A stretch of 64,000 bases of DNA from Eledone cirrhosa. Its lineage: Eukaryota. This document shows, piece by piece, positions 57,033 to 61,727 of the stretch; position 1 is the stretch's first letter; every line of letters begins with the position of its first letter. Both the position numbers and the translations under genes were made by a program. The notes below the pieces were generated by a model. It saw only the letters and a program-made list of their open reading frames with translations, made no database searches and was not told the DNA's origin. The stretch covers positions 26,660,001-26,724,000 of the forward strand of contig OZ024754.1 of assembly GCA_964016885.1 (NCBI GenBank), written 5' to 3'.

Positions 57033-60000
57033 TTGGATTAAATGCTCTGAAATAGCGATATATATGTGAAGATAGACATAGAATATTCGAAAATATTCTG
57101 TATGTTTATAATAAACATTTTGAAGACCTAATCGCTATAGAATAGAATACGTCACGTATTACAATTAGATTCTCGATAAAAGCAAGGGAAGTAACCTACG
57201 CGTTTCATTCTTATTAGAAATCTTCAGGATTACATATCCAGTGCTTTTATCGAGAATGACACAGCTAGAGACTTATAGAATACTTAGCTGTGTACAGGAA
57301 CTGGTTTGAAAGAGCGGTTGCCGGTCCGGCAGAAATTAGAAATTGGATTAAATGCTCTGAAATAGCGATATATATGTGAAGATAGACATAGAATATTCGA
57401 AAATATTCTGTATGTTTATAATAAACATTTTGAAGACCTAATCGCTATAGAATAGAATACGTCACGTATTACAATTAGATTCTCGATAAAAGCAAGGGAA
57501 GTAACCTACGCGTTTCATTCTTATTAGAAATCTTCAGGATTACATATCCAGTGCTTTTATCGAGAATGACACAGCTAGAGACTTATAGAATACTTAGCTG
57601 TGTACAGGAACTGGTTTGAAAGAGCGGTTGCCGGTCCGGCAGAAATTAGAAATTGGATTAAATGCTCTGAAATAGCGATATATATGTGAAGATAGACATA
57701 GAATATTCGAAAATATTCTGTATGTTTATAATAAACATTTTGAAGACCTAATCGCTATAGAATAGAATACGTCACGTATTACAATTAGATTCTCGATAAA
57801 AGCAAGGGAAGTAACCTACGCGTTTCATTCTTATTAGAAATCTTCAGGATTACATATCCAGTGCTTTTATCGAGAATGACACAGCTAGAGACTTATAGAA
57901 TACTTAGCTGTGTACAGGAACTGGTTTGAAAGAGCGGTTGCCGGTCCGGCAGAAATTAGAAATTGGATTAAATGCTCTGAAATAGCGATATATATGTGAA
58001 GATAGACATAGAATATTCGAAAATATTCTGTATGTTTATAATAAACATTTTGAAGACCTAATCGCTATAGAATAGAATACGTCACGTATTACAATTAGAT
58101 TCTCGATAAAAGCAAGGGAAGTAACCTACGCGTTTCATTCTTATTAGAAATCTTCAGGATTACATATCCAGTGCTTTTATCGAGAATGACACAGCTAGAG
58201 ACTTATAGAATACTTAGCTGTGTACAGGAACTGGTTTGAAAGAGCGGTTGCCGGTCCGGCAGAAATTAGAAATTGGATTAAATGCTCTGAAATAGCGATA
58301 TATATGTGAAGATAGACATAGAATATTCGAAAATATTCTGTATGTTTATAATAAACATTTTGAAGACCTAATCGCTATAGAATAGAATACGTCACGTATT
58401 ACAATTAGATTCTCGATAAAAGCAAGGGAAGTAACCTACGCGTTTCATTCTTATTAGAAATCTTCAGGATTACATATCCAGTGCTTTTATCGAGAATGAC
58501 ACAGCTAGAGACTTATAGAATACTTAGCTGTGTACAGGAACTGGTTTGAAAGAGCGGTTGCCGGTCCAGCAGAAATTAGAAATTGGATTAAATGCTCTGA
58601 AATAGCGATATATATGTGAAGATAGACATAGAATATTCGAAAATATTCTGTATGTTTATAATAAACATTTTGAAGACCTAATCGCTATAGAATAGAATAC
58701 GTCACGTATTACAATTAGATTCTCGATAAAAGCAAGGGAAGTAACCTACGCGTTTCATTCTTATTAGAAATCTTCAGGATTACATATCCAGTGCTTTTAT
58801 CGAGAATGACACAGCTAGAGACTTATAGAATACTTAGCTGTGTACAGGAACTGGTTTGAAAGAGCGGTTGCCGGTCCGGCAGAAATTAGAAATTGGATTA
58901 AATGCTCTGAAATAGCGATATATATGTGAAGATAGACATAGAATATTCGAAAATATTCTGTATGTTTATAATAAACATTTTGAAGACCTAATCGCTATAG
59001 AATAGAATACGTCACGTATTACAATTAGATTCTCGATAAAAGCAAGGGAAGTAACCTACGCGTTTCATTCTTATTAGAAATCTTCAGGATTACATATCCA
59101 GTGCTTTTATCGAGAATGACACAGCTAGAGACTTATAGAATACTTAGCTGTGTACAGGAACTGGTTTGAAAGAGCGGTTGCCGGTCCGGCAGAAATTAGA
59201 AATTGGATTAAATGCTCTGAAATAGCGATATATATGTGAAGATAGACATAGAATATTCGAAAATATTCTGTATGTTTATAATAAACATTTTGAAGACCTA
59301 ATCGCTATAGAATAGAATACGTCACGTATTACAATTAGATTCTCGATAAAAGCAAGGGAAGTAACCTACGCGTTTCATTCTTATTAGAAATCTTCAGGAT
59401 TACATATCCAGTGCTTTTATCGAGAATGACACAGCTAGAGACTTATAGAATACTTAGCTGTGTACAGGAACTGGTTTGAAAGAGCGGTTGCCGGTCCGGC
59501 AGAAATTAGAAATTGGATTAAATGCTCTGAAATAGCGATATATATGTGAAGATAGACATAGAATATTCGAAAATATTCTGTATGTTTATAATAAACATTT
59601 TGAAGACCTAATCGCTATAGAATAGAATACGTCACGTATTACAATTAGATTCTCGATAAAAGCAAGGGAAGTAACCTACGCGTTTCATTCTTATTAGAAA
59701 TCTTCAGGATTACATATCCAGTGCTTTTATCGAGAATGACACAGCTAGAGACTTATAGAATACTTAGCTGTGTACAGGAACTGGTTTGAAAGAGCGGTTG
59801 CCGGTCCGGCAGAAATTAGAAATTGGATTAAATGCTCTGAAATAGCGATATATATGTGAAGATAGACATAGAATATTCGAAAATATTCTGTATGTTTATA
59901 ATAAACATTTTGAAGACCTAATCGCTATAGAATAGAATACGTCACGTATTACAATTAGATTCTCGATAAAAGCAAGGGAAGTAACCTACGCGTTTCATTC

Positions 60001-61228
60001 TTATTAGAAATCTTCAGGATTACATATCCAGTGCTTTTATCGAGAATGACACAGCTAGAGACTTATAGAATACTTAGCTGTGTACAGGAACTGGTTTGAA
60101 AGAGCGGTTGCCGGTCCGGCAGAAATTAGAAATTGGATTAAATGCTCTGAAATAGCGATATATATGTGAAGATAGACATAGAATATTCGAAAATATTCTG
60201 TATGTTTATAATAAACATTTTGAAGACCTAATCGCTATAGAATAGAATACGTCACGTATTACAATTAGATTCTCGATAAAAGCAAGGGAAGTAACCTACG
60301 CGTTTCATTCTTATTAGAAATCTTCAGGATTACATATCCAGTGCTTTTATCGAGAATGACACAGCTAGAGACTTATAGAATACTTAGCTGTGTACAGGAA
60401 CTGGTTTGAAAGAGCGGTTGCCGGTCCAGCAGAAATTAGAAATTGGATTAAATGCTCTGAAATAGCGATATATATGTGAAGATAGACATAGAATATTCGA
60501 AAATATTCTGTATGTTTATAATAAACATTTTGAAGACCTAATCGCTATAGAATAGAATACGTCACGTATTACAATTAGATTCTCGATAAAAGCAAGGGAA
60601 GTAACCTACGCGTTTCATTCTTATTAGAAATCTTCAGGATTACATATCCAGTGCTTTTATCGAGAATGACACAGCTAGAGACTTATAGAATACTTAGCTG
60701 TGTACAGGAACTGGTTTGAAAGAGCGGTTGCCGGTCCGGCAGAAATTAGAAATTGGATTAAATGCTCTGAAATAGCGATATATATGTGAAGATAGACATA
60801 GAATATTCGAAAATATTCTGTATGTTTATAATAAACATTTTGAAGACCTAATCGCTATAGAATAGAATACGTCACGTATTATAATTAGATTCTCGATAAA
60901 AGCAAGGGAAGTAACCTACGCGTTTCATTCTTATTAGAAATCTTCAGGATTACATATCCAGTGCTTTTATCGAGAATGACACAGCTAGAGACTTATAGAA
61001 TACTTAGCTGTGTACAGGAACTGGTTTGAAAGAGCGGTTGCCGGTCCGGCAGAAATTAGAAATTGGATTAAATGCTCTGAAATAGCGATATATATGTGAA
61101 GATAGACATAGAATATTCGAAAATATTCTGTATGTTTATAATAAACATTTTGAAGACCTAATCGCTATAGAATAGAATACGTCACGTATTACAATTAGAT
61201 TCTCGATAAAAGCAAGGGAAGTAACCTA
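57033..61228 (-). repeat. 310-bp tandem array (13 full units starting 57031+310k, plus a 168-bp partial), each full unit carrying a hammerhead motif on the minus strand; retrozyme-like
   Basis: Exact 310-bp periodicity; only 3 substitutions noticed (58568, 60428, 60882); no ORF; begins in (TA)n. Confidence 0.95.
57191..57233 (-). ncRNA. Type I minimal hammerhead ribozyme motif, first of 13 minus-strand copies at +310 bp steps (last at 60911-60953); predicted cleavage between 57197 and 57196
   Basis: GUAAUC-CUGAAGA-U-UUCU(AAUA)AGAA-U-GAAA-CGCG-UA^GGUUAC; helix I extended by GGA/UCC and a perfect 16-bp stem (57169-57184 / 57242-57257). Confidence 0.85.
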
Positions 61229-61727
61229 TCTCGATAAAAGCACTGGATATGTAATCCTGAAGATTTCTAATAAGAATGAAACGCGTAGGTTACTTCCCTT
61301 GCTTTTATCGAGAATCTAATTGTAATACGTGACGTATTCTATTCTATAGCGATTAGGTCTTCAAAATGTTTATTATAAACATACAGAATATTTTCGAATA
61401 TTCTATGTCTATCTTCACATATATATCGCTATTTCAGAGCATTTAATCCAATTTCTAATTTCTGCCGGACCGGCAACCGCTCTTTCAAACCAGTTCCTGT
61501 ACACAGCTAAGTATTCTATAAGTCTCTAGCTGTGTCATTCTCGATAAAAGCACTGGATATGTAATCCTGAAGATTTCTAATAAGAATGAAACGCGTAGGT
61601 TACTTTCCTTGCTTTTATCGAGAATCTAATTGTAATACGTGACGTATTCTATTCTATAGCGATTAGGTCTTCAAAATGTTTATTATAAACATACAGAATA
61701 TTTTCGAATATTCTATGTCTATCTTCA
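61229..61727 (+). repeat. About 1.6 inverted copies of the 310-bp unit, with hammerhead motifs at 61251-61293 and 61561-61603, ending in (TA)n
   Basis: Reverse complement of the array unit; one substitution near 61606. Confidence 0.93.

Follow-up and report, generated by a model that had tools for sequence, protein, structure and literature searches.

A 310-bp hammerhead retrozyme of Eledone cirrhosa and its Penelope-like insertion footprint

Introduction

Animal retrozymes without long terminal repeats (non-LTR retrozymes) were defined in PMC7229834, where circular RNAs were described in coral, mussel, and axolotl and Penelope-like elements (PLEs) were proposed as helpers. Vertebrate retrozymes have been tied by similarity to the pseudo-LTRs (pLTRs) of PLEs, local satellite expansion was suggested, and cleavage was reported in one of nine dimers (bioRxiv 10.64898/2026.07.22.740005). 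The movement of animal retrozymes has so far been proposed, not shown. Here we analyze a 310-bp tandem hammerhead array in a 64,000-nt stretch of Eledone cirrhosa DNA (assembly GCA_964016885.1, contig OZ024754.1, positions 26,660,001 to 26,724,000 of the forward strand), hereafter the window.

PLEs leave inverted 5'-truncated copies and a one-sided tail of 30–40 bp, hallmarks that LINEs (long interspersed nuclear elements) do not show in their priming, and the origin of PLE tails and of tandem and inverted copies was stated to be open (PMC8557442). A PLE protein cuts and extends both target strands, and two internal start sites define the tail, which is described as unique to PLEs and as marking the two start sites of the reverse transcriptase (RT) (PMC11167929).

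The array represents a single insertion of a non-LTR retrozyme family that is young and dispersed. We consider it probable that this retrozyme was written into (TA)n by a borrowed PLE RT-endonuclease, which would have primed synthesis at both DNA ends and repeatedly copied one circle of monomer RNA. An earlier note on this DNA, made from its letters by a model, knew of no description of such a family; the kind has been described (PMC7229834; bioRxiv 10.64898/2026.07.22.740005). The element class is thus already known; the genomic signs of PLE priming from two ends, on a template of mostly one unit, are unusually clean.

The 310-bp retrozyme family

Unit positions are numbered from the base following the GUA cleavage triplet, and the hammerhead strand is taken as sense. 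Tandem Repeats Finder (TRF) reported a long arm with a period of 310, 13.5 copies, and 99% matches at 57032–61228, and direct reading agreed with it, which upholds the earlier description of 13 full units and a partial one, together with about 1.6 inverted units, inserted in (TA)n. The 13 full units differ from one another at only three sites (58568, 60428, and 60882). The RNA 3' end of the long arm is at unit position 165 (57032) and its 5' end at position 309 (61228), while the short arm runs from position 252 to 130, or to 139 if the TA microhomology is counted. The unit (310 bp, 34% GC) has stops in all six frames and contains no RT or GIY-YIG open reading frame (ORF); the units are non-coding, as had been claimed. 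Non-coding tandem units (170–400 nt in the published cases, with about 150–450 bp taken as the range for the class), GC content below 50%, a type I hammerhead in each unit, a self-paired fold (here with a monomer fold z of −3.68), and coexisting PLEs are shared with the animal non-LTR retrozymes.

The exact 37-nt core was found 982 times genome-wide (3.0 Gb), versus 0 times for the reversed pattern. Dispersed arrays, a search for which had been proposed in the note, are abundant: a looser core pattern, which does not catch the A-U form described below, had at least 14,728 matches versus 0 in the control, and 77 loci were mapped. The near-identical unit had 248 candidate places. The first 100 looser-core matches lie in 16 loci, extrapolation from which suggests a family of about 2,000 or more loci. 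The mapped set comprised the window, the 40 best-scoring of the 248 near-identical-unit places (a choice skewed toward near-identical copies), the 20 places still left over from the 100 exact-core matches listed, and all 16 looser-core places listed; four of the 77 loci are incomplete, meeting the end of the extracted stretch or a gap. The family is multi-locus and dispersed, without LTR structure, and no search aimed at a primer-binding site or a polypurine tract was made.

Length variants of 311 and 312 bp (L298; L083, L085, and L205) are uniform across both arms of an insertion. Retrozymes are often nested in the (TA)n that ends a PLE or a sister element (L056, L080, L092, L213, and L283).

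Insertion footprint

The arm layout of the 77 loci is strongly one-directional: 58 are two-armed and joined 5'-to-5', with sense 3' ends outward, none is joined 3'-to-3', and 19 are single-armed. The 3' ends fall at unit positions 125–140 or 158–172 in 131 of 133 cases, and TA-rich DNA adjoins 119 of the 133. Among the 56 complete two-armed loci, 54 combine one short and one long end, none pairs like with like, and two (L041 and L201) have one odd end. Three further loci beyond the 77 show the same pattern of arms and ends. The 5' ends are scattered, with 3 of 133 within 4 nt of the predicted cut, where 3.4 are expected. At the junctions of the 58 two-armed loci, overlaps of 1–5 bases were found in 41, no overlap in 3, a 16-base overlap (the palindromic stem) in 1, and extra bases in 13. 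The tails are 26–37 nt long, varying with TA microhomology. Imperfect tracts at L206, L208, and L214 suggest target-site duplications of 15–36 bases, which are unreadable in pure (TA)n; duplication matches in 16 of the 77 loci include TA noise.

This layout and the two end classes imply that antisense cDNA was added to each target 3' end, with synthesis starting at two fixed internal positions 26–37 nt apart. The one-sided pairing of ends is the Penelope tail signature. L1 twin priming uses both target ends as primers on a single RNA and joins them through microhomology, which produces an inversion; the second primer is placed at variable internal sites, and the element has a poly(A) end. The retrozyme insertions share the two-end priming and the inversion, but here both starts are fixed and poly(A) is absent.

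Similarity was also found with PLEs that have GIY-YIG at the C terminus, of the Neptune/Nematis Zn-linker type and with the mechanism known from anole Poseidon, as described in PMC8557442 and PMC11167929: tandem and inverted 5'-truncated copies, a one-sided tail of 30–40 nt, two internal RT starts downstream of the hammerhead cut, and (TA)n targeting. Unlike PLEs, the 310-base unit has no ORF, and each arm strings together many copies of a single short unit. In addition, strictly one start site is used per DNA end, whereas no strand difference was seen for a PLE in vitro (PMC11167929). For the published animal retrozymes, co-occurrence and pLTR similarity led to the proposal that PLEs help; the case made here draws on the insertion footprint instead. 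The earlier proposal that the units are copied by a PLE RT in trans gains support from this genome-wide footprint. The main texts of PMC7229834 and bioRxiv 10.64898/2026.07.22.740005, as accessible, do not treat inverted arms, tails, or microsatellite targets, and a literature search limited to non-subscription papers found no retrozyme paper with this footprint.

Haplotypes and the template

Comparison of 317 full units revealed differences of 0.23% between the arms of one locus and 1.6% between loci; the within-arm value of 0.45% is inflated by long single arms. No fixed arm-to-arm difference was present in 26 of 27 testable two-armed loci. Six locus-private variants are fixed in all units that cover them, five of them across both arms; for example, G212C occurs in 18 of 18 units of L067. 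Private variants fixed in every unit of both arms imply a one-unit bottleneck, most simply a circle. With arms 99.8% alike in an abundant family, each insertion still records its making. The footprint ties retrozymes to PLE chemistry and argues for a one-unit template.

Contigs of 340 bases (310 + 30), one in each of the runs X4–X6, were considered as evidence for circles and were not used, since a tandem DNA array yields the same contig. These contigs, which come under other organism labels, have 6–7 differences, of which 4–5 lie within the hammerhead and all keep the fold.

Hammerhead ribozyme

All elements of the ribozyme could be read directly in the sequence: helix I GUAAUC/GGUUAC, CUGAAGA, a U.U pair, a 4-bp helix II with an AAUA loop, GAAA, the palindrome ACGCGU, the GUA triplet, and a 16-bp outer stem. 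Helix I has 6 bp, helix II consists of 4 bp on the U.U pair, and helix III is an A-U pair capped by palindromic CGCG. Fifteen exact 43-nt hammerhead stretches are present in the window array, 13 on the minus and 2 on the plus strand, and every core (15/15) is intact, so the reported count of 15 complete type I motifs stands. A relaxed hammerhead scan matched 1 of 5,000 shuffled units and gave 576 matches in 1.38 Mb of extracted DNA versus 0 in the reversed control. The proposed Rfam search returned Hammerhead_HH9 for two of the 15 cores; with 17.1 and 16.4 bits, both matches are below the gathering score of 52.

The minimal hammerhead of PLEs has a helix II of 7–8 bp, a helix I of 4–5 bp, and no real helix III, and the canonical metazoan type I hammerhead was reported to need a dimer (PMC4209133). 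By the definitions given there, the ribozyme reads as the canonical metazoan form and not, as the note had supposed, as the minimal PLE form: the helices are 6 bp (I), 4 bp (II), and 1–2 bp with a palindrome (III). Its helix III resembles that of axolotl HHR_Amex1, and its U.U pair that of HHR_Amex2, whose monomer cleaves poorly and dimer well (PMC7229834). The U.U pair is not unusual, contrary to what had been thought, being present in HHR_Amex2 and in several other families of this genome; at two loci of the 310-base family (L298 and L299) U287A converts it to A-U.

Among the variants fixed throughout an insertion, none affects the 11 core positions. The helix I variants G2A, A276G, and A277G exchange Watson-Crick and wobble pairs, the outer-stem variants A20G and A260G likewise preserve pairing, and A284U, U294C, and A295G are located in N7 and loop II. 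Other hammerhead families in the genome have different sequences, with all three helices kept by covariation and with the palindromes CGCG, CUAG, GUAC, CCGG, and UGCA. On the covariation among genomic copies that the note had named, the family itself shows pair-keeping change in helix I and the outer stem, and covariation in all three helices is seen between families; the cross-family support is stronger because fixed changes in the 310-base family are few and mostly transitions.

The core reads UUGANAA, not CUGANGA, in several PLE families and in one family of sister retrozymes, a substitution that compensates at the 3–8 pair (L080:195–430; L122; L092:2200–2260). In (TA)n at L130:7500–7710 and L133:5630–5830 lies a short inverted element whose hammerhead has a longer helix III but a helix II, UUUCU AA AGAAU, nearly that of the 310-base family, making an exchange of ribozymes possible.

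Candidate helpers and sister families

The genome contains 10,595 GIY-YIG candidates. PLE frames that combine RT, a Zn linker, and GIY-YIG at the C terminus are present; their assignment to Neptune or Nematis was made by the Zn-linker motif only. Genomic PLEs carry hammerhead-like motifs near their ends, one with a U.U pair and a palindromic helix III, and their ends fall at two sites after the hammerhead, for example at 114–124 (six copies) and 164 (five copies). The PF01541 loci, a family C protein search, searches with diverged relatives, and 17 hairpin loci with upstream DNA yielded sister retrozymes or unrelated neighbors and no parent element.

Older families with units of about 310–340 bp share approximately unit positions 60–210 and have 1,534, 2,831, and 3,277 candidate places. 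In a sister family with about 94% identity, 14 of 30 short loci are two-armed; of these, 7 pair both end classes and 6 are cut or odd.

Immediately 5' of the short start site, two hairpins have been preserved across the sister families, with compensatory changes. From 117 distinct sequences, 22 representatives were chosen, of which 17 were tested and 5 dropped for indels or truncation. Pairing was retained in 95.9% of cells, and two-sided change was observed in 6 of 13 pairs, a result matched by none of 500 shuffles. Only hairpin B is unbiased, since the pattern used for picking contained hairpin A; in hairpin B, two-sided change was seen in five of seven pairs. The hairpin A pattern had 30,311 matches in the genome versus 2 in the control. 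The hairpins at unit positions 79–117 may bind the RT. The superfamily includes at least five families and about 30,000 hairpin matches.

The window also contains, at 27440–27800 on the minus strand, an old copy from a sister retrozyme family, its hammerhead decayed; that family is the one with 2,831 candidate places. Upstream of the ribozyme, the family carries the octamer ATGCAAAT together with a TATA-like motif, a putative promoter. An unrelated tandem hammerhead repeat of about 515 bp, with expanded (TA)n inside every unit, was found at L044:5400–8400.

Proposed mechanism and alternatives

Array transcripts would self-cleave after GUA, probably as dimers formed via the palindromic helix III, and the monomers would be ligated into circles. 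The PLE protein would bind the two hairpins and cut both (TA)n strands. Synthesis would start at about position 165 on one DNA end and at about 130–139 on the other, and each end would roll on for 0.1 to about 18 units, after which the two cDNA ends would be joined through 1–5 bases of microhomology. We see about equal weight for and against a more specific scheme, in which a dimer of the PLE enzyme would hold one circle, with a fixed start site per DNA end and rolling-circle target-primed reverse transcription from both, and in which the two-hairpin element would be a portable signal for hijacking by a long-lived superfamily without pLTR likeness. If true, this would offer a single mechanism behind the PLE tail and the tandem and inverted structures, testable on a 310-nt substrate; a test in vitro now has exact positions for the starts and one candidate for the binding element.

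Several observations weigh against copying of a monomer circle by a PLE enzyme. In 50 GIY-YIG (PF01541) loci of the 10,595, a small and score-biased sample, and in the family C loci, no sequence shared with the unit was found, and the sister-family loci that were inspected had no PLE frame upstream of their hairpin. In the sister family, L166 has the same end on both arms. Non-fixed variants are common to both arms in seven two-armed loci. L034 has T39A and a 5-base deletion in the same register from both 3' ends, and L039 has three linked variants in both arms; chance does not account for such complexity, and these two cases call for a multimer template or later gene conversion, either of which they fit. 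Recurrent or periodic patterns within L048, L058, L062, and L063 show later DNA-level exchange. A search for a ligation scar revealed no excess of errors at the ligation junction. For the predicted circular monomer, the pairing probability of helix II is only 0.05–0.07 because UUUC pairs with GAAA of the core, so that cleavage may be weak; this predicted pairing could hold the circle closed or signal a weak ribozyme. Among published systems, eight of nine predicted frog dimers did not cleave (bioRxiv 10.64898/2026.07.22.740005), and an anole PLE was inserted from uncut RNA (PMC11167929).

Part of this evidence would be accommodated if the same PLE twin priming had as its template either a long linear transcript of a source array, left uncut or cut only in part, or a multimeric circle, with a ribozyme that is weak or dispensable for insertion. 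Such a template would explain why L034 and L039 carry mosaic variants in register in each of their arms, and it agrees with the predicted misfolding of the core in the monomer, with the uniform 5' ends, which suit any long template, and with the continued insertion of ribozyme mutants in the anole PLE system (PMC11167929). It is nevertheless unlikely, because private variants fixed in all units of both arms (five cases, with further ones in L298 and L299) require a one-unit bottleneck, and the 11 core positions remain without fixed change while helix changes keep pairing.

According to the model of bioRxiv 10.64898/2026.07.22.740005, solo terminal repeats of PLEs would have been expanded locally to satellites by unequal crossing-over and then homogenized. 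Periodic variants in L048, L058, L063, and the long single arm L062 show some DNA-level expansion, but as the main route satellite expansion is disfavored and appears very improbable. Both arms are often multimeric (L215 reaches about 8 and 6 units), the 3' ends are fixed, one haplotype continues across the inversion at only 0.23% difference, and many loci are variant-free, so parallel unequal exchange would be needed at most loci in very little time.

An assembly or long-read fold-back artefact is scarcely credible: palindromic arrays are hard to assemble, L212 adjoins an N gap, and the window's own junction is unbridged among the X1–X3 contigs listed, but the arms are not mirror images, their ends and lengths differ, the loci lie on many contigs with locus-specific haplotypes, and X1–X3 contigs hold the unit and other arm-to-arm joints on the same template.

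Organization of the window locus

The features of the array are listed in Table 1. The predicted cut lies between 57507 and 57506, and the hammerhead domain recurs every 310 bases.

Table 1. Features of the retrozyme insertion (window coordinates)
Feature	Coordinates	Strand	Comment
Left (TA)n target tract	56961..57033		presumed long-arm primer
Long arm, 13.5 units	57032..61228	-	RNA sense on minus strand
Tail, unit positions 131–165	57032..57066	-	only at the outer end of the long arm
Single cut-to-cut 310-nt monomer	57197..57506	-	predicted RNA unit
Two hairpins, unit positions 79–95 and 98–117	57390..57428	-	candidate RT-binding element
Hammerhead domain of one unit	57479..57567	-	outer stem, internal loop, helix I, core, helices II/III
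5'-to-5' arm junction	61228..61229		0-base overlap at the window locus
Short inverted arm, 1.6 units	61229..61727	+	its two cores start at 61251 and 61561
Right (TA)n target tract	61727..61782		presumed short-arm primer

The 5' end in the window located 2 nt from the cut was rejected as meaningful, such proximity being at chance level across the 133 ends. A hexamer template is not claimed from C179T, present in two window units, because the site is a CpG and other loci show the same change.

A Tx1/L1-like LINE occupies 48458–56700 of the window. It has an endonuclease-RT frame at 50368–53169, a second RT frame at 54186–55328, and a zf-RVT-like frame extending to 56455, and it terminates in a TC/ATCT microsatellite. 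The Tx1-like LINE (48458–56455) was rejected as a helper: it shares no end with the retrozyme, and LINEs are described as leaving no tails (PMC8557442). The target lies within a local duplication of about 212 bp (56640–56852 and 56853–61849) containing the LINE 3' end, (TC)n, (TA)n, and a CA-rich tail. Since the array splits the (TA)n of the second copy, the first copy displays the empty site.

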